This document shows positions 37,803 to 44,213 of a stretch of DNA of 44,213 nt, in pieces. The notes beneath the pieces are model-generated. The model worked only from the letters and a program-made list of their open reading frames with translations, was not told where the DNA came from and did no database searches. Made by a program: the position numbers and the translations under genes. The stretch is from Patescibacteria group bacterium (GTDB lineage Bacteria > Patescibacteriota > Microgenomatia > UBA1400 > PJMF01), in assembly GCA_039714855.1 (NCBI GenBank), contig JBDLIL010000003.1, forward strand, positions 1 through 44,213, given 5' to 3'. Within the stretch, counting starts at the first letter, position 1. The number at the start of each line of letters is the position of its first letter.

Positions 37803-38480
37803 CTAGCTGAGATTTAATCCCCTTCTTTTTAGCCAACCCCTATTTTTTTTATGCTCAGGATCAAACTTTTCTACTAAATTCCAAAAAGATCTCGAATGAT
37901 CCATGTGTTTTCTATGAGCCAATTCGTGAATAATTACATAATCTATTACTTTGGGTGGGGTGTGTACCAATCGCCAATTAAAATTTAAATTACCTTTACT
38001 ACTGCAGCTGCCCCATCTGGTTTTTTGCTCTCGCAAAGTAATTTTTCCGAATGAAATTTTCATCTTTTTGGCTATAGCATGAGTTCTGGGAATTATATAT
38101 TTTGTTGCTGTATTTTTTAGAAATCTATTTATGGCTTTTTCAGAATTAGCTTTGGTATTTTTTAATAAATTTATATTAATATTATTTTCAATTGTTTTTA
38201 CGCCGGGCAATATACTAATATCTGACTTAATTATTTTTTTGTATTTTTTACCAAATATTAAAATTTCGTTATTATTAACAGCAAAGTTTTTGCTAGCTTT
38301 TTGTTGAATTAAAGCTTTTTCTATCCATGTTTTATTTTTTTTTACAAAAAGATTTATTACAAATTTGGGAGTCATTTTGGGCGTGACTACTACCACCTGA
38401 CCACTGCCATCAATTTTAATTTTTATTGACTTGGATTTGGGATGAGTTTTGTGGATATATGAGATTGCTTTCTTTATCAC
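37803..38480 (-). CDS. YgjP/DUF45-family metal-dependent hydrolase
   Basis: KTRWGSCS..G.L.FNWRL, DYVIIHELAH and H...FW. Confidence 0.92.
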   Translation of the reverse strand: MIKKAISYIHKTHPKSKSIKIKIDGSGQVVVVTPKMTPKFVINLFVKKNKTWIEKALIQQKASKNFAVNNNEILIFGKKYKKIIKSDISILPGVKTIENNININLLKNTKANSEKAINRFLKNTATKYIIPRTHAIAKKMKISFGKITLREQKTRWGSCSSKGNLNFNWRLVHTPPKVIDYVIIHELAHRKHMDHSRSFWNLVEKFDPEHKKNRGWLKRRGLNLS

Positions 38481-38487
38481 GAGGAAA

Positions 38488-39000
38488 TTAGAAAATTTTA
38501 TTTTTGATCAAAAGTATATCATCGATGAACTTGCTCCATAGTTCTATCAAAGGTAGGTCATTGAGAGTATTGAAAATAAAAGCATTACCAAAAAGTAAGA
38601 AAACGGCAATAATGGTATTCAGTGCTTTAGCAGCTTTATTTTGAATCAATGTAATTTTAAGAGCAAAGAACATGCTTAAAATGGTCGATCCTGTCATTAA
38701 TATCGCCTGCACCGCTATACTGTTTACTTCAGACTGTGTAATGCTGTGCTGCAATAACCTTGCTTCCAAAATAGGAAAATCCACCATCACAAACTTTAAT
38801 GAGTTAAAGAGACCCATTAGGCCTTGGATAGTAAGGCCAATGGCAATAAGTCTTCTGGCAGTAGGATTGACAAAAATTTCTTCAGCTTTTTCTAAATAAG
38901 ATATCTCTTGAGGATTGGAAATTTCCTGTTTTGTTTGCATTTGGGGAATCTGAGTGGCTGCAGGAATAGGAGCTGGAGTTGTTGAGATTTGATTATTCAC
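38488..39000 (-). CDS. Hypothetical membrane protein (3 TM)
   Basis: Start moved to GTG 39000 (alternatively ATG 39012) to avoid overlap with tRNA-Leu. TGcTATGAT lies 7 nt upstream. Confidence 0.65.
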   Translation of the reverse strand: MNNQISTTPAPIPAATQIPQMQTKQEISNPQEISYLEKAEEIFVNPTARRLIAIGLTIQGLMGLFNSLKFVMVDFPILEARLLQHSITQSEVNSIAVQAILMTGSTILSMFFALKITLIQNKAAKALNTIIAVFLLFGNAFIFNTLNDLPLIELWSKFIDDILLIKNKIF

Positions 39001-39060
39001 AGTAGCTATCATAGCACTTTTTCGTATAATACATCTGTTGCCAGTGCTTGTACTGAGCAT

Positions 39061-39142
39061 GCCGAAGTGGCGGAACTGGTAGACGCGCACGGCTTAGAAC
39101 CGTGTGGAGCAATCCATGGAGGTTCGAGTCCTCTCTTCGGCA
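39061..39142 (+). tRNA. tRNA-Leu(TAG)
   Basis: GCCGAAG/CTTCGGC acceptor stem, CACGG-CTTAGAA-CCGTG anticodon arm, long variable arm and GGTTCGAGTCC. Confidence 0.96.
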
Positions 39143-39151
39143 CCGCAGCCA

Positions 39152-39183
39152 TAAAAAATCCCCGCTTGCGCGAGGGTTTTTTG
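39152..39183. terminator. Putative bidirectional intrinsic terminator
   Basis: AAAAAATCCCCGC-TTGC-GCGAGGGTTTTTT between convergent units. Confidence 0.6.
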
Positions 39184-39265
39184 AATCAGAACGTACCCCC
39201 GGTGAGGAGAAACCTTCTGATATGTTTAGAAGTATACTAGATACATACAAATATATCAAGTAGTA

Positions 39266-39949
39266 TCAAAGTATTTCTTCTTGATTGGCGTATTCAAGCA
39301 CACTAGGGTTATCTTCTTTGAGTTCTTTACCCTTGACGTAATCATTGTATTTCATTTCACTCATCCATTGTTTAACGCTCTCTGCCCAACTGCCATCACT
39401 AAACGGAGTATATTTGGTCATGATTAACTCAGGGGTATCTAGGCCAATGTCTATGTAATATTTTTTCAGTTCTCTAGCAGCTCTTTCAAAATTAGCCTCA
39501 AAGCTTTCAAAGCCTAGAGTGCCGCGCTCATGAATTCCAAACCCAAGACAATTATAAGATCCAGCCGGAATTTTATTGCACAAATTGCTTTCTTGCATAG
39601 CTATGGCTGGGAGTAGACGAAAATCAAATTCATATTCATCTGCCAGACTAACAAAAACCTCACCGAAATGATCATGGGGTTCTAGGGGTGAATTGTGTCT
39701 TTTGAGAAATTCAGCTACAATTTCTGCTCTAGCGTCAGCTAATTTCATATCAGTTTCGATGCCTTTGACATTACCCACAACCTTGATTTCTACAATAGAC
39801 TCTTGAGAGGAAGAAACAGACTCTGGGACAATGTTTGCTACTATAGGTTGATTTTTATGCAAGATAAAAAAGTAATAGGCCGATATACTGGTTAGAGTTA
39901 CACCAGTGCTAAGCAAAACCCAAGCCAGGCTGAAAAACAGTTTTTTCAT
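39266..39949 (-). CDS. Membrane-anchored lysozyme-like (glucosaminidase-type) protein
   Basis: N-terminal TM, then L..HNSPL, D.RLLPAIAMQES, YN..GFG and I..KY.P....WA. Confidence 0.7.
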   Translation of the reverse strand: MKKLFFSLAWVLLSTGVTLTSISAYYFFILHKNQPIVANIVPESVSSSQESIVEIKVVGNVKGIETDMKLADARAEIVAEFLKRHNSPLEPHDHFGEVFVSLADEYEFDFRLLPAIAMQESNLCNKIPAGSYNCLGFGIHERGTLGFESFEANFERAARELKKYYIDIGLDTPELIMTKYTPFSDGSWAESVKQWMSEMKYNDYVKGKELKEDNPSVLEYANQEEIL

Positions 39950-40021
39950 AGTTCTTAAAAATTTATTGTAACAGTTGCATCTCTACAAGTACACTTGAGT
40001 ATGATATCCTATAATATAGAA

Positions 40022-41008
40022 ATGCCAAATTTTAAATTAGAAGTACTAAAGATCAGTTTTTTCGTATTTTTAACTCTTTTTGTTTTTGCAAATAGGGTTA
40101 TAGCAGCTGATTCTAGAGTTTTGGGTATTCATATTCTTCGTCCAGAAGAAATCAGCCAGGCTAAAAGCTTATTGCTCGAGGAAAATCAAGAAGAGTGGAA
40201 GTATATTACTATCCCCTTGTCTCTTGAAGATTTGAATAGGAAAGATAATTGGCAGGAGTTTTTTTGGAAGGCAAAAGAGGCTAAATTTATTCCCATAGTG
40301 CGTCTGGTAACCAGGTTTGATAATGAATCTTGGCAGTTGCCAAATAAAAAGGAAATTACCAATCAGATTAGTTTTTTATCTTCCCTCGAGTGGCCTACTC
40401 CAGAAAGGCACATTATTGTTCTTAATGAAGTAAACCACGCTCCTGAGTTTGGAGGTCAAATTGACCCCTCTAGATACGCTAAAATACTAGAATTTACCAG
40501 CAATTGGGCTCATAGTGAGGCCAAAAACTACAAAGTTTTGCCTGCTGCTATGGATTTGGCTGCATCTAACACTTCTCAAACGATGGAAGCTTTCTTGTAC
40601 TTAGAGAAAATGTACGCAGCTAATCCTGAAGTTTTTGACACTTTGGATTATTGGAATTCGCACTCTTATCCTAATCCAGGTTTTGTGTCTTCTCCTACTA
40701 GGCATGATAAAAAATCTTTGAGGGGTTTTGAGCATGAATTGGCTTTTGTAAAAGACAAAACGGGTAAAGATTTGCAAGTTTTTATTACTGAAACTGGTTG
40801 GAGAGATACTAGTGCAACTTCCAGATGGCTAGATTCATATTATGAATATGCTATGCAACATATTTGGTCTGATCCCAGAATCAAAGCTGTTACACCATTC
40901 ATCTTACAAGGATCCCCAGGACCATTTGCAGCTTTTAGTTTCTTGGATGAAGCTGGTCAACCAAACAGACAGTACTATGCGTACAGAAATTTAATTGAGA
41001 AGTATTAA
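40022..41008 (+). CDS. Secreted clan GH-A glycoside hydrolase-like protein
   Basis: Signal peptide, acid/base NEVNH, HSYP and nucleophile FITETGW. Start ATG 40022, 6 nt after TATAAT. Confidence 0.78.
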   Translation: MPNFKLEVLKISFFVFLTLFVFANRVIAADSRVLGIHILRPEEISQAKSLLLEENQEEWKYITIPLSLEDLNRKDNWQEFFWKAKEAKFIPIVRLVTRFDNESWQLPNKKEITNQISFLSSLEWPTPERHIIVLNEVNHAPEFGGQIDPSRYAKILEFTSNWAHSEAKNYKVLPAAMDLAASNTSQTMEAFLYLEKMYAANPEVFDTLDYWNSHSYPNPGFVSSPTRHDKKSLRGFEHELAFVKDKTGKDLQVFITETGWRDTSATSRWLDSYYEYAMQHIWSDPRIKAVTPFILQGSPGPFAAFSFLDEAGQPNRQYYAYRNLIEKY

Positions 41009-41697
41009 TTGATGCCCGCAGAATTTAGGTTGACTTGCCCTGTTTGAGTTAAATTTTCTGTTTTGTAAGCAAAGGCCTTGTGCCATTCCTCGTATTTTGA
41101 TTTTATTTTTTCGAGATTTGGTTCGCCAAAAAATTCAAGTAATTTGTTAAATTGTTCCACCTTATCTTTTCCGTATCTATTAAGAGATTCAATGATGTGT
41201 TCTTTACTTTTAAACTTGGGGGTTTTTGAATGAAATTTGGCTGCGTATCCTACCAGTTGCCCTTCTATTGTTTGAGGGATTAGATCTTGGACTGGCAAAT
41301 TGAGGCCGTAATTTTGGATATCTTGAGCAGTAAGACCGACACCAGTGTGAGTGTAGGCTGCTTCTACTATCACTGGGTCCAAGCCTTCTTTTTGAAGTAT
41401 TTTTGCACCTGTTACCACGTGTTGAATATAAGGTTTTTCGGAAGGTGTTTGATCTGGAATCCACTCAAAACCACCACAACAATAGACTCCGATATCATGT
41501 AAGAGTGCAGCTTGAATTGCGTGGGGGATGTTTATACTGCTGCTGTCAAAATATTTTGATGATAATAATTGCTGCACTATGTCAGCCACAATATTACAAT
41601 GTGTCCAAACCAAATCAAGTAGGACGAGTGATTTTGCATATTTTTGATGCAAAGCCAGGGCTCTAGGGTGTTGGTTTTGGTTTACAAACTCAATCAC
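41005..41697 (-). CDS. HD-domain (HDIG-type) phosphohydrolase
   Basis: WTHC..VA, LLHDIG, H...GA.IL and HTGVG. The final Asp (YADKF) appears as YAAKF. Confidence 0.85.
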   Translation of the reverse strand: MIEFVNQNQHPRALALHQKYAKSLVLLDLVWTHCNIVADIVQQLLSSKYFDSSSINIPHAIQAALLHDIGVYCCGGFEWIPDQTPSEKPYIQHVVTGAKILQKEGLDPVIVEAAYTHTGVGLTAQDIQNYGLNLPVQDLIPQTIEGQLVGYAAKFHSKTPKFKSKEHIIESLNRYGKDKVEQFNKLLEFFGEPNLEKIKSKYEEWHKAFAYKTENLTQTGQVNLNSAGIN

Positions 41698-41826
41698 AGT
41701 TGCTCTAGTTGTAACATATTTTTTATTCAGTTAGGGCAATAAAAAAATATTTGTAATTTATTGCTAAAAATCAGTATAGCATTCTTGGAAGAGTGATATA
41801 ATTGGTTCTCGCGTGGCGAGTATTTT

Positions 41827-41903
41827 GCGCCAGTAGCTCAGTGGATTAGAGCAGTGGTCTTCGGAACCAAAGGCCGGGGGTTCGAATCCCTCCTGGCGCA
41901 CCA
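41827..41903 (+). tRNA. tRNA-Arg(TCG), CCA encoded
   Basis: GCGCCAG/CTGGCGC acceptor stem, CTTCGGA anticodon loop and GGTTCGAATCC. Confidence 0.95.
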
Positions 41904-41993
41904 TTGGTTTTGGTTTTATAATCTAGGGCCTGTTTAGAATTTGTTATTTTAAATTTGTTTAGGATTTGGAATTTACCACAGTAGGTAGTATTT

Positions 41994-42067
41994 GGGTCCG
42001 TAGCTCAGTTGGTTAGAGCGACAGCCTTTTAAGCTGTGCGTCCCGGGTTCGAGTCCCGGCGGACTCA
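41994..42067 (+). tRNA. tRNA-Lys(TTT)
   Basis: GGGTCCG/CGGACTC acceptor stem and ACAGC-CTTTTAA-GCTGT anticodon arm. Confidence 0.96.
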
Positions 42068-42133
42068 CTTTGGCCTCGTGTGTTACCGATGTATATTGCC
42101 AACTTTGACTTTTCTGCTTAGAATTGCTCAAAT

Positions 42134-42865
42134 ATGTCAGTTCGTTACTACCCGCTTGTAAATAGGTTTATTAGCTCTCTGCAACTTAATGATAGGGACG
42201 TTGATTCTAAGGCTAAAAAAACTTCTTTTTTCGATCAGCCTTTTATTACTATTGCTAGGGAACCTGGTAGCGGAGGTGCTCCTGTAGCCAAAGCTGTAGC
42301 CAAAAAACTAGGCTTTGTTTTTGTGGACAAGCAAATTATCGAGAAAGTTGCCAAATCTACCAAAAAGCGAAAAGAGGTTATTAAGCAAATTGATGAAAAA
42401 GAACGAACTGCCATGTCCGACATGATTCACTCGATTTTTAATAAGGATTATGTAAGTGATATCAAATATCTTACTGAAATGACCAAAGTGGTGATGGCGT
42501 ATGCCCATAAAGGGCGTGTAGTGATTTTGGGCAGAGGGGCCAACTTTATTACCCCAATGGCAAAAGGTTTGCATGTCAGTATTACGGCGCCTTATGCCAC
42601 TAGGGTGAAAAGAGCCATGGATTATGAGGGTTTTTCTAGAACTCAGGCTAAAGAAGTCATCAGTAATGTTGAAAAAACTAGGCGGGCTTTTGTTAAGCAA
42701 TATTTAAAACGTGATAGTAAAAAAGCCAATGCTTATGATTTAACTCTTAATACTGCTTATTTGTCTGTCGATCAATCTAGAGACATTATTGTTGAGGCTT
42801 TTTGTAACAAATTTTCTCGTTTTAAGCGCTATGGTTCTTTATTCAAGACAGCAGTTTCCCAATGA
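42134..42865 (+). CDS. Cytidylate-kinase-like family protein
   Basis: ITIAREPGSGG..VA..VA.KLG, VILGRGA and R.AF..QY......YDL.LN. Confidence 0.88.
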   Translation: MSVRYYPLVNRFISSLQLNDRDVDSKAKKTSFFDQPFITIAREPGSGGAPVAKAVAKKLGFVFVDKQIIEKVAKSTKKRKEVIKQIDEKERTAMSDMIHSIFNKDYVSDIKYLTEMTKVVMAYAHKGRVVILGRGANFITPMAKGLHVSITAPYATRVKRAMDYEGFSRTQAKEVISNVEKTRRAFVKQYLKRDSKKANAYDLTLNTAYLSVDQSRDIIVEAFCNKFSRFKRYGSLFKTAVSQ

Positions 42866-43509
42866 ATACTTCCCAAGTTTACAAGAAATATAAAATTATG
42901 CCCTCTTTGCAGCAGCATCAATTGCGTGTGGCGGCAGTTGCAAAATTAATTTGCGAAAATTTTACCAACCATATAGATTCTAAATCTATAATTACAGCTT
43001 GTTTACTTCATGATATGGGCAATATTCTGAAATCTGACCTCACTTTATTTCCAGATTTTTTGAAGCCTGAGGGTTTAGAATATTGGCAAGTTGTTAAAGA
43101 AGAATTTAGGGAAAAATATGGTGATGATGAGCATTGGGCCAGCATGCTCATTTCTAAAGAACTCGGAGTAAAGCAAAAAGTTTTGGATTTGATTGATGGT
43201 ATTGGTTTCGAAAACATTGAAAAACATTTTTCTGCAAAAGATTTGGAAAACATGATCTGCGAGTATGCTGACTGTAGGGTGGCTCCTCATGGGGTTGTTA
43301 GCTTGGATGAAAGATTGACTGATCTTGAAGAGCGTTATGGTTTTAGGTATCCGGATAGTGATCATAAGAATATGAGGCAAAAATTTTATGATCTTGCAAG
43401 ACGGAGTGAAACTTATATTTTTAAAAATCTTATTATAAAGCCAAAAGATATCAGTGCGGAGGCTTTGAATGATACAATTCCGGAGTTACGCTTATTTGAA
43501 ATTTCTTAA
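42862..43509 (+). CDS. HD-domain protein
   Basis: HQLRVAAVA, LLHDMGN and YAD.RV.P.G..SL.ER..DL..RY. Confidence 0.85.
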   Translation: MNTSQVYKKYKIMPSLQQHQLRVAAVAKLICENFTNHIDSKSIITACLLHDMGNILKSDLTLFPDFLKPEGLEYWQVVKEEFREKYGDDEHWASMLISKELGVKQKVLDLIDGIGFENIEKHFSAKDLENMICEYADCRVAPHGVVSLDERLTDLEERYGFRYPDSDHKNMRQKFYDLARRSETYIFKNLIIKPKDISAEALNDTIPELRLFEIS

Positions 43510-43541
43510 TAATAGATACCGAAGTGCTTGCACTGAGCTTA

Positions 43542-43625
43542 GCCGAAGTGGCGGAACTGGTAGACGCGTACGCCTCAGAAGCGTATGGATGTATTTCCTT
43601 GGAGGTTCGAGTCCTCTCTTCGGCA
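43542..43625 (+). tRNA. tRNA-Leu(CAG)
   Basis: GCCGAAG/CTTCGGC acceptor stem, TACGC-CTCAGAA-GCGTA anticodon arm and long variable arm. Confidence 0.95.
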
Positions 43626-43656
43626 CAAAAGCTGATATAATGTGCTTTCTCGTTAA

Positions 43657-43706
43657 GCCCAGGTGGCCCGCCTTCGCCAAGGCTTCGGCAGGGCTAATGG
43701 AACTGG
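43657..43706 (+). pseudogene. tRNA-Leu 5' fragment split by a 31-nt palindrome
   Basis: GCCCAGGTGG [CCCGCCTTCGCCAAGGCTTCGGCAGGGCTAA] TGGAACTGG, compared with the intact GCCCAGGTGGTGAAATTGG at 43724. Confidence 0.75.
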
Positions 43707-43723
43707 AGTTGAAGTTTTTAAAA

Positions 43724-43805
43724 GCCCAGGTGGTGAAATTGGTAGACACGCAGTCTTGAGGAGGCTGTCCTTTCGGGGATGGAGGTTCAAGTCCTCTCCT
43801 GGGCA
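43724..43805 (+). tRNA. tRNA-Leu(GAG)
   Basis: GCCCAGG/CCTGGGC acceptor stem and CAGTC-TTGAGGA-GGCTG anticodon arm. Confidence 0.95.
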
Positions 43806-43817
43806 CTATTTAATATT

Positions 43818-43893
43818 GGCCGCTTAGTCTCAGCTGGTTAGAGCGTCCGGTTTACATCCGGAAGGTCGTCCCGCCATGGCGGGACAGCGGCAA
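43818..43893 (+). pseudogene. tRNA-Val(TAC)-like gene whose T-arm is an 18-bp palindrome
   Basis: GCCGCT/AGCGGC acceptor stem, D-arm, and TCCGG-TTTACAT-CCGGA anticodon arm. GTCCCGCCATGGCGGGAC replaces the TTCGA arm. Confidence 0.8.
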
Positions 43894-43900
43894 ACAAATA

Positions 43901-43974
43901 GGACTCATGGCTCAGTTGGTTAGAGCGCCTCGTTTACATCGAGGAGGTCGGAGGTTCGAATCCTCCTGAGTCCA
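43901..43974 (+). tRNA. tRNA-Val(TAC)
   Basis: GGACTCA/TGAGTCC acceptor stem, CCTCG-TTTACAT-CGAGG anticodon arm and GGTTCGAATCC. Confidence 0.96.
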
Positions 43975-44004
43975 CAAAACTTGTGTTAGAATTATCAAGT
44001 TAAA

Positions 44005-44063
44005 AACAAGCCAAGCTAGCTCCTCCTTCGCTAAAGCTACGGAAGGACGCAGCAAGGTGGTCA
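44005..44063 (+). pseudogene. tRNA-Phe 5' duplicate split by a 32-nt palindrome
   Basis: AACAAGCCAAGCTAGC [TCCTCCTTCGCTAAAGCTACGGAAGGACGCAG] CAAGGTGGTCA. The joined flanks are identical to 44073-44099. Confidence 0.85.
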
Positions 44064-44077
44064 TTACTAACTAACAA

Positions 44078-44150
44078 GCCAAGCTAGCCAAGGTGGTCAA
44101 GGCACGTGTCTGAAAAACATGGGATTGAGGTTCGACTCCTCAGCTTGGCA
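44078..44150 (+). tRNA. tRNA-Phe(GAA)
   Basis: GCCAAGC/GCTTGGC acceptor stem, CGTGT-CTGAAAA-ACATG anticodon arm and GGTTCGACTCC. Confidence 0.95.
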
Positions 44151-44213
44151 CAGTTTTCTCAACATCTTGTATTTTCCTATTGCATTTACCACTAAATATA
44201 TGTAGTTTTTATG

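Follow-up and report, generated by a model that had tools for sequence, protein, structure and literature searches.

Transfer RNA gene starts split by a hairpin repeat family in a Patescibacteria genome: probable footprints of small elements associated with GIY-YIG nuclease genes

A partial copy of a transfer RNA (tRNA) gene beside the intact gene is the classical signature of integrase-mediated integration. In fungal mitochondria, mobile endonuclease open reading frames (ORFs) enter the end of an essential gene, supply it with a new end and leave the old one behind as a dead fragment, and short GC-rich double-hairpin elements are found in the AT-rich mitochondrial DNA of Allomyces and fission yeast. 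Rickettsia palindromic elements, approximately 100–150 nucleotides (nt) in length, reside in a small AT-rich genome and are tolerated in frame in protein-coding genes. For phages T4 and T6, a published account describes SegB, encoded in the tRNA gene cluster, as a free-standing GIY-YIG homing endonuclease with a 27-base-pair (bp) site containing a conserved T-loop motif, which cuts inside tRNA genes and carries neighbouring tRNA genes along (PMC2330249), and a second account describes nuclease- and recombination-dependent tandem amplification of the tRNA-containing segment following SegB breaks (PMC13096335). Here we describe tRNA gene starts that are split by short hairpins in a 44,213-nt stretch of Patescibacteria DNA (contig JBDLIL010000003.1 of assembly GCA_039714855.1, forward strand; hereafter the window). 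These broken starts were probably left behind by small selfish DNA elements, a family in the Patescibacteria that would act through a nuclease of the GIY-YIG type.

Split tRNA starts and the hairpin repeat family

The window is contig C3 of a genome designated G000, a short-read metagenome bin (970 kb, 81 contigs, 36% G+C, completeness 94%); below, C-numbers denote contigs of G000 and L-numbers denote loci from the genomes of relatives. The last 700 bases of the window contain four tRNA genes, Leu-CAG, Leu-GAG, Val-TAC and Phe-GAA, identified by ARAGORN and Rfam. An earlier note on this DNA, made from its letters alone, had described the Phe and Leu(GAG) genes as preceded by their own 5' ends, each interrupted by a palindrome, and its coordinates proved exact, with 16/16 and 11/11 bases matching around the 32-nt insert of Phe and 12/12 bases matching beside the 31-nt insert of Leu(GAG), whose gene begins 17 nt after a 9-nt piece. 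The 16-base and 11-base pieces of Phe sit 68 and 36 nt upstream of their counterparts, and over 25 nt the similarity of the two inserts is 80%. The extended -10 boxes reported at 43633–43641 and 43984–43992 were likewise confirmed; the broken copies lie downstream of them and are expected to occupy the transcript leaders.

The same arrangement recurs across the genome. When the starts of all 42 tRNA genes of G000 were aligned with the sequence upstream of them, as had been suggested, six genes were found to have at least 10 exact bases of their own 5' end within the upstream 150 nt, compared with 0/42 downstream and 4/1646 upstream of tRNA genes for other amino acids. Two further copies have diverged, giving eight genes on six contigs (Phe, Leu-GAG, Lys-CTT, Ser-GCT, Ser-TGA, Glu-CTC, Glu-TTC and Val-CAC) with one common architecture, which bears out the proposal of a recurring process that puts short palindromes in tRNA starts with an intact gene following. 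In each scar an extended -10 box is followed by a leader of 9–22 nt, tRNA positions 1 to 10–13, a hairpin of 27–41 nt, a D-loop piece ending at position 19–28, an AT-rich spacer of 11–27 nt and the intact gene; the exception is Val-CAC, in which the left half runs to position 20. The last 0–13 bases of the spacers repeat the leader, and the Lys-CTT scar consists of two identical 76-nt units in tandem. Four of the broken copies are 100% identical to their tRNA, and those of Val-CAC, Leu-GAG and Glu carry mismatches. All six exact copies contain a hairpin, and no partial 5' copy of at least 10 nt without one was found in G000.

Break positions were compiled from 203 tRNA loci, a sample that is biased because many of the loci were obtained via the hairpin, the nuclease or tRNA-Phe. 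Of 13 exact 5' copies, nine end at tRNA position 9–13 and four at position 18–20, and the expectation of non-random insertion positions therefore held. Among 27 copies of 3' ends, 25 start 9–21 nt from the 3' end, with a mode of 14, directly past the T loop, and two are much longer, near whole-gene copies of 55 and 71 nt. Insertion is confined neither to 5' ends nor to the acceptor/D-stem junction named by the earlier note: the T-arm/3' form is at least as common in relatives (the 27 cases) and this mirror image is also present in G000, at tRNA-Gln and tRNA-Ala. The tRNA-Ala(TGC) locus (C15:5136-5290) is a nuclease-less 3' form, in which an exact 17-nt repeat of the gene's 3' end lies 55 nt downstream, preceded by a GC-rich hairpin of another family.

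The inserts of Phe, Leu(GAG) and the 5' copies on other contigs constitute one repeat family, which goes beyond the earlier description of inserts that differ in sequence but share a core in Phe and Leu(GAG), and members of the family are also present in coding genes. A 19-letter core pattern, allowing at most one mismatch, gave 11 matches in G000 and none when reversed as a control, and was also detected in 9 of 40 relatives, belonging to eight other families of the order. With an nhmmer profile built from the copies, 29 copies were detected in G000 at E<0.01: six in tRNA leaders, three at tRNA 3' ends or in a nuclease cassette described below, 10 in open frames of at least 200 amino acids (aa) and 10 elsewhere. 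Alignment of 50 distinct copies from several genomes showed a conserved 14-nt centre, forming the loop, and arms that vary between copies yet are complementary. For the 48 copies that could be scored, duplexes between the two arms of one copy had a mean energy of -8.07, compared with -5.71 +/- 0.27 for arms dealt among copies, and 0/1000 shuffles reached the observed value. The stem co-varies, its structure being conserved through compensatory change. The hairpin is found in either orientation relative to the tRNA and therefore acts as DNA.

Copies in long open frames include C21:4739-4769, C22:5379-5412, C14:17052-17084, C2:9638-9663 and C45:3070-3102, among others, all in frame and read as peptides of the ...FAKAS.D... 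or ...LKLRRA... type according to frame and strand. No direct repeat of at least 8 nt flanks the hairpin copies in coding genes, and at the tRNA scars 0–4 bases can be read by eye as repeated on both sides of the hairpin. In the one case aligned, a membrane protein on C21, the element-encoded residues fall in an alignment gap of two of three homologues, these being only approximately 33% identical, and the gap suggests that the hairpin was inserted in a loop. Two further settings of the hairpin were noted. In a cluster of Thr-TGT, Thr-GGT and Tyr genes (C18:5829-6149) both tRNA-Thr genes have a family hairpin that begins no more than 3 nt from their 3' end and that may be a simple insertion there or may function in processing or termination. 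On the minus strand of the window, at 830–855 and away from tRNA genes, lies a hairpin variant with an extra inner stem-loop, as seen in the tRNA-Ser(TGA) scar.

The position of the promoters indicates which copy is the native gene start. The TGNTANAAT motif occurs in G000 at a frequency of 0.12 per kb per strand; it is found 9–29 nt before cassette-free tRNA genes and 9–22 nt ahead of the broken copy in six of the eight scarred genes, and no TGNTANAAT box was found before the displaced intact genes of the eight loci. A promoter scan of 43300–44213 that demanded a -35 hexamer listed neither of the extended -10 boxes. Because the promoter lies at a normal distance from the broken copy, it is this copy that is the native gene start, and the broken left halves of Phe and Leu(GAG) are most likely the native starts of their genes. 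Displacement has moved the intact genes 67–152 nt downstream, and their transcription, starting at the old promoter, is expected to traverse the scar. A match to RNase P RNA at C16:2927-3348 covers the full model (1–367) over 422 nt with 75.7 bits, below the Rfam gathering score of 100, and may carry insertions; with an RNase P RNA present, long leaders should be removable. Semi-global alignment of spacers with promoter-leader sequences, judged against shuffles, gave support for Ser-GCT only (p 0.01) and was not significant for Phe, Leu-GAG, Lys unit 1, Glu-TTC, Glu-CTC and Ser-TGA (Val-CAC was left out). A plain tandem duplication, with the spacer as a decayed copy of the promoter-leader region, was rejected because the alignment was significant for Ser-GCT alone.

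The coordinates of the tRNA cluster are given in Table 1. It includes a case that the earlier note had missed, a broken tRNA-Val(TAC) in which an 18-nt perfect palindrome centred on CATG (43868–43885) takes the place of the T arm. Neither ARAGORN nor Rfam detected this broken gene. The duplication that had been claimed for tRNA-Leu(CAG) fared less well: the 8-nt repeat exists, but the case is weak because such a copy is only marginally beyond chance (approximately 0.3 matches of this kind are expected over 42 genes, by estimate), and the nhmmer family profile gave no match at 43519–43541. Both the Val palindrome and the Leu(CAG) spacer are, as judged by the family model, outside the hairpin family. 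The whole region from 43300 to 44213 is covered with 0 differences by a Logan contig (2221 nt) of sequencing run X1, which is possibly the source sample. Among the sequencing runs searched only X1 holds the stretch, other runs having at most 11% of its words, corresponding to conserved tRNA parts, and the one RNA run contains 4% of them.

Table 1. Intact and broken tRNA genes, hairpins and promoter boxes at the end of the window
Feature	Position	Strand	Observation
8-nt copy of tRNA-Leu(CAG) positions 2–9	43519–43526	+	24 nt upstream of the original
15-nt spacer with small palindrome, abutting tRNA-Leu(CAG)	up to 43541	+	
Intact tRNA-Leu(CAG)	43542–43626	+	ARAGORN; Rfam tRNA, 55.7 bits
Extended -10 box, TGNTANAAT type	43633–43641	+	15 nt ahead of broken Leu(GAG) copy
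Broken Leu(GAG), left half: 2 leader bases and positions 1–10	43655–43666	+	12/12 identical to 43722–43733
Leu(GAG) hairpin, 31 nt, family member	43667–43697	+	nhmmer E=6e-6; folds as hairpin; core pattern with 1 mismatch
Broken Leu(GAG), right half: D-loop piece, 9 nt	43698–43706	+	7/9 against positions 11–19 of own gene
AT-rich spacer before Leu(GAG), 17 nt	43707–43723	+	No copy of promoter region (shuffle p 0.92)
Intact tRNA-Leu(GAG)	43724–43806	+	ARAGORN, Rfam
Broken, near-full-length tRNA-Val(TAC)	43818–43892	+	Positions 1 to ~51 and 3' acceptor strand retained
Intact tRNA-Val(TAC)	43901–43975	+	Allele other than that of the broken copy; compensatory stem differences
Extended -10 box	43984–43992	+	17 nt ahead of position 1 of broken Phe copy
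Broken Phe, left half: 5 leader bases and positions 1–11	44005–44020	+	16/16 identical to 44073–44088
Phe hairpin, 32 nt, family member	44021–44052	+	Exact core-pattern match; nhmmer E=4.8e-7; fold
Broken Phe, right half: positions 12–22	44053–44063	+	11/11 identical to 44089–44099
AT-rich spacer before Phe, 14 nt	44064–44077	+	Final 5 bases are the leader repeat
Intact tRNA-Phe(GAA)	44078–44151	+	85–96% identical to tRNA-Phe genes of relatives

Nuclease cassettes and turnover in relatives

A RAYT (repetitive extragenic palindrome-associated tyrosine transposase)/TnpA(Y1) gene, which had been put forward as the possible mobilizer, was not found, as G000 (94% complete) gave no PF01797 match at E<=0.01 in a search whose control was positive in 6 of 14 reference genomes. 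A search of G000 for the GIY-YIG domain identified four small stand-alone ORFs above the Pfam cut-off and one below it, with one further match in a 456-aa open frame of the window. The ORF on C22 encodes 103 aa (PF01541, E=1.2e-19) and starts 41 nt past tRNA-Gln(TTG). A family-like hairpin is situated directly behind this tRNA gene and an inverted family hairpin within the last codons of the ORF, and the cassette is followed by a 14-nt copy of the tRNA-Gln 3' end. Of 151 genomes of the order, 76 have homologues of this nuclease; multiple copies are frequent, and many of the homologues contain stop codons. Among the best 30 homologue loci, 20 have a same-strand tRNA gene within 260 nt (18 upstream of the ORF and two downstream) and 10 have an 11–18-nt copy of the tRNA 3' end 327–376 nt downstream of the intact gene. 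In eight of those 10, by our own reading of the flanks, family-like hairpins in inverted orientation are present at both ends of the cassette; the C22 locus is itself one of the 10 and one of the eight.

Two loci from relatives carry the nuclease gene at the 5' end of a tRNA gene. In L059 a promoter is followed by positions 1–12 of tRNA-Ser, a double hairpin, five D-loop bases, a GIY-YIG ORF, seven bases and the intact tRNA-Ser gene, and L056 has a similar arrangement at tRNA-Asn. These are nuclease-bearing 5' forms that reproduce the anatomy seen in the window. The window scars themselves, with spacers of 11–27 nt, contain no ORF and are therefore at most derivatives or trans-mobilized forms.

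The C22 nuclease consists of the catalytic domain alone, as does its family (approximately 85–105 aa), and its best solved relative is a UPF0213 protein (E=3.8e-6). Nucleases of this type score below threshold against TIGR01453 (20–24 bits; cut-off 56), and tblastn gave no match for the nuclease in 50,697 phage records at E<=0.001. Away from tRNA genes, in C16:6500-7250, C9:3150-3850 and C28:8050-8800, G000 has three further GIY-YIG ORFs, each stand-alone and approximately 100 aa in length, flanked by GC-rich hairpins of other sequence families; several lineages that pair a hairpin with a nuclease seem to coexist in this genome.

Synteny of the Leu-CAG, Leu-GAG, Val-TAC, Phe and Gly-GCC genes extends to 29 relatives from the same family, where the cluster is mostly compact and 14 of 123 tRNA genes have terminal copies, with other hairpin families, at other positions and often at the 3' end. 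The hairpin described here precedes tRNA-Phe in 0/29 of these loci. Only two among them have a copy of the tRNA-Phe start, exact in L070 and partial in L077, and both copies are split by a different hairpin, elsewhere in the gene, and extend into the anticodon loop. In L071 (genome G175) the Phe, Val, Leu-GAG and Leu-CAG genes are each trailed by a copy of their own 3' end, the T-arm/3' copies of the first three being split by an identical 32-nt hairpin of another family, a pattern that looks like a burst of one element; Leu-CAG has a shorter hairpin of different sequence. In a contig of 6650 nt from an unrelated sequencing run (X2), 48 letters connect the first 51 nt of the broken Val type with tRNA-Phe, with neither the palindrome nor the second Val gene nor the Phe scar between them. 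Presence and absence at the same site in related genomes are seen from the 29 tRNA-Phe loci and the X2 contig, and scars turn over between relatives. Compared with 44148–44213 of the window, X2 has approximately 119 extra letters after tRNA-Phe, starting with a hairpin-like string, after which the last tRNA bases are repeated; this suggests that the X2 relative carries a 3' form at tRNA-Phe.

Alleles also differ between broken and intact copies. Over the first 51 nt of the broken Val, 47 positions match the intact tRNA-Val(TAC) of four relatives and only 39 match the adjacent intact gene, and the differences between the broken and intact Val copies are compensatory in stems. The D-loop piece of Leu-GAG matches an allele seen in a relative and not the adjacent gene, its 9-mer being present in the tRNA-Leu(GAG) gene of L072. 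At least some of the events thus substitute a diverged gene or gene end for the resident one, and the diverged Val allele is what would be expected of a gene or gene end that was imported rather than copied locally. Two ARAGORN calls with unusual anticodons, a tRNA-Ile with TAT (C19:6542-6618) and a tRNA-Ser with ACT beside a GIY-YIG gene (L049:361-446), may be miscalls or altered copies.

A proposed mechanism and the alternatives to it

In the explanation we favour, a full element would be approximately 330 bp in length and comprise a stand-alone GIY-YIG gene of approximately 100 codons beside or between hairpins, sited in the D or T arm of a tRNA gene, and the scars of the window would be nuclease-less miniature forms of it. 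The native start (promoter, leader and positions 1 to approximately 12) would stay in place and a segment of approximately 60–75 nt would enter behind it, consisting of the hairpin, the D-loop piece, the AT-rich spacer and a fresh leader end with positions 1 to approximately 12, so that the fresh 5' end would make the tRNA gene whole again downstream. Transcription from the old promoter would cross the scar, which RNase P would have to cut off. The data above show how the scars are built, that their hairpin belongs to a repeat family physically associated with the nuclease gene, that the broken copy is in its native place and that scars come and go between relatives; the breakage and repair that follow are inferred. 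By analogy with SegB, the nuclease, supplied in cis or in trans, would break tRNA genes in the conserved D or T arm, probably guided by the hairpin loop, and recombinational repair or homing, with the sister or an occupied allele, would yield the order of broken end, hairpin and regenerated end. Selection would allow only those events to survive that restore the essential gene.

Several points weigh against this explanation. There is no nuclease gene beside any of the eight 5' scars in G000, and the scars are linked to the nuclease because the hairpin family is shared and through the loci of relatives. The hairpin lies inside the broken copy, with 8–13 tRNA bases beyond it, and not at the repeat junction, and such an internal hairpin is predicted neither by classical target-site duplication nor by simple Campbell-type integration. 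The intact copy retains the presumed target sequence, leaving homing immunity and escape from re-cutting unexplained. Judged by its sequence, the nuclease is a bare catalytic domain with no DNA-binding domain and no phage match, and is not a relative of SegB. Apart from its 0–13 terminal bases, the spacer does not copy the promoter region. The paralogues Glu-CTC and Glu-TTC both retain a scar, which therefore persisted through gene duplication and could hint at use. Finally, the X2 contig possibly represents another, related organism and its 48 bridging letters are unread.

An unlikely alternative, although the strongest of those considered, is a neutral one, in which tRNA duplications arise alone, without a nuclease cassette, and a palindrome resembling miniature inverted-repeat transposable elements (MITEs), with a preference for D- or T-arm DNA, lands in the dispensable copy, hits in the working copy being purged. 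The hairpin does insert in coding genes without flanking duplication, and the broken Val is a whole gene beside a diverged second gene with a palindrome in place of its T arm, as if redundancy came first and the hit second. All six exact partial 5' copies in G000, however, have the hairpin; the broken copies moreover end within a narrow range, at position 19–28, or 8–13 bases past the hairpin, and eight independent duplications of the same short segment in a streamlined 1-Mb genome would need a cause of their own.

A functional RNA is more doubtful still. The scars would here be cis-acting leaders with a role in processing, stability or transcription, or decoys for enzymes that target tRNA, the hairpin serving as a protein-binding module. 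Their position between promoter and gene, where transcription is expected, is compatible with this, as are the co-variation of the stem, the retention of the leader by both tRNA-Glu paralogues and the 100% identity of four copies to their tRNA. The leader or decoy role raised by the earlier note nevertheless found no support among relatives, since 0/29 keep this hairpin before tRNA-Phe and different tRNAs are hit in different genera; the hairpin also occurs in either orientation and in coding genes, and older copies decay. A known RNA leader such as a T-box or riboswitch was rejected, as no such Rfam family was found in 38000–44213 at E<=1, the search returning seven tRNAs and otherwise only sub-threshold chance matches.

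It is very improbable that the broken copies are attL/attR remnants of tyrosine recombinase islands or prophages. Two PF00589 recombinase genes are present in G000, but they are located on C52 and C33, contigs without tRNA genes; the repeats are 60–150 nt apart with only a hairpin of approximately 30 nt between them, the hairpin lies inside the repeat, at least eight tRNA genes are affected, and the sole gene within such repeats, here and in relatives, is the GIY-YIG nuclease. Chimeric read joining at repeated palindromes can hardly account for the data, for although the genome is a short-read bin of 81 contigs with a hairpin repeated approximately 30 times, the X1 contig spans the stretch without differences and comes from an independent assembler, possibly with the same read set, and the architecture is repeated on seven contigs and in genomes of other studies.

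If selfish elements of this kind do enter essential tRNA genes in dozens of lineages without killing the host, a dedicated restoration of the gene is implied, and DNA mobility would gain a new mode. In annotations of candidate phyla radiation (CPR) genomes, a single cause would lie behind pseudo-tRNAs, unusual tRNA leaders and short GC-rich insertions in proteins, and tRNA genes would evolve in part by inactivation of resident genes and substitution of diverged alleles, as at the Val locus. The very small nuclease may recognize a DNA hairpin loop and is of possible interest as a tool. The window, with four adjacent tRNA genes, is an unusually rich instance. A wider reading is possible and is offered tentatively, with less confidence than the explanation favoured above. 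It would make these elements an undescribed class, a sequence-specific hairpin with a minimal, domain-only GIY-YIG nuclease that colonizes the D or T arm of nearly any tRNA gene. Break and resynthesis would regenerate the gene end each time, leaving hairpin-tagged dead ends in leaders and trailers and swapping tRNA alleles between lineages, and nuclease-less hairpins would have been seeded genome-wide, also in frame in proteins. Were this wider reading true, a gene-drive-like parasite would shape the tRNA diversity and promoter-leader architecture of Patescibacteria, and the hairpin and nuclease would form a new structure-guided DNA-targeting system.

Comparison with known systems

Literature searches brought up no publication that describes hairpin/GIY-YIG elements at CPR tRNA genes, and the system was compared with those that it resembles in part. 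With attL/attR sites it shares a partial direct repeat of a tRNA end beside an intact gene; it differs in that there is no integrase or island, the repeat lies tens of nt from the gene and is split by a hairpin, and 5' ends are hit too. Repetitive extragenic palindromic (REP) sequences and REPINs are likewise short imperfect palindromes, present in tens of dispersed copies, in which one part is conserved and the stem co-varies. The present system differs from them in that no Y1 transposase was found, copies lie inside genes and there is a link to GIY-YIG nucleases; REP sequences are, moreover, not known to duplicate tRNA ends as their targets. As with Rickettsia palindromic elements, copies are tolerated in coding genes, 10 of the 29 in G000 lying in open frames of at least 200 aa, whereas here the elements are approximately 30 nt long, are associated with a nuclease gene and have a habit of sitting in duplicated tRNA ends. 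The mobile ORFs of fungal mitochondria affect protein-coding genes and the end that they displace is not split by a hairpin, whereas bacterial tRNA genes are affected here.

SegB is the nearest tested system, and the likeness lies in a GIY-YIG gene lodged at or among tRNA genes, and the repeats of the 3' cassettes described here begin past the T loop, at position ~59. The present system differs in being chromosomal, in Patescibacteria, with a nuclease that is a catalytic domain only, nearest UPF0213, and whose activity is putative; it also has conserved hairpin modules, many nuclease-less miniatures and the D arm as a second target, and leaves the broken gene end beside the regenerated gene. 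Like MITE-like repeats, the hairpin family is multi-copy and non-coding, with compensatory structure. The system is a member of none of these known families, and functionally it is like a homing-endonuclease cassette combined with a MITE-like palindrome family.

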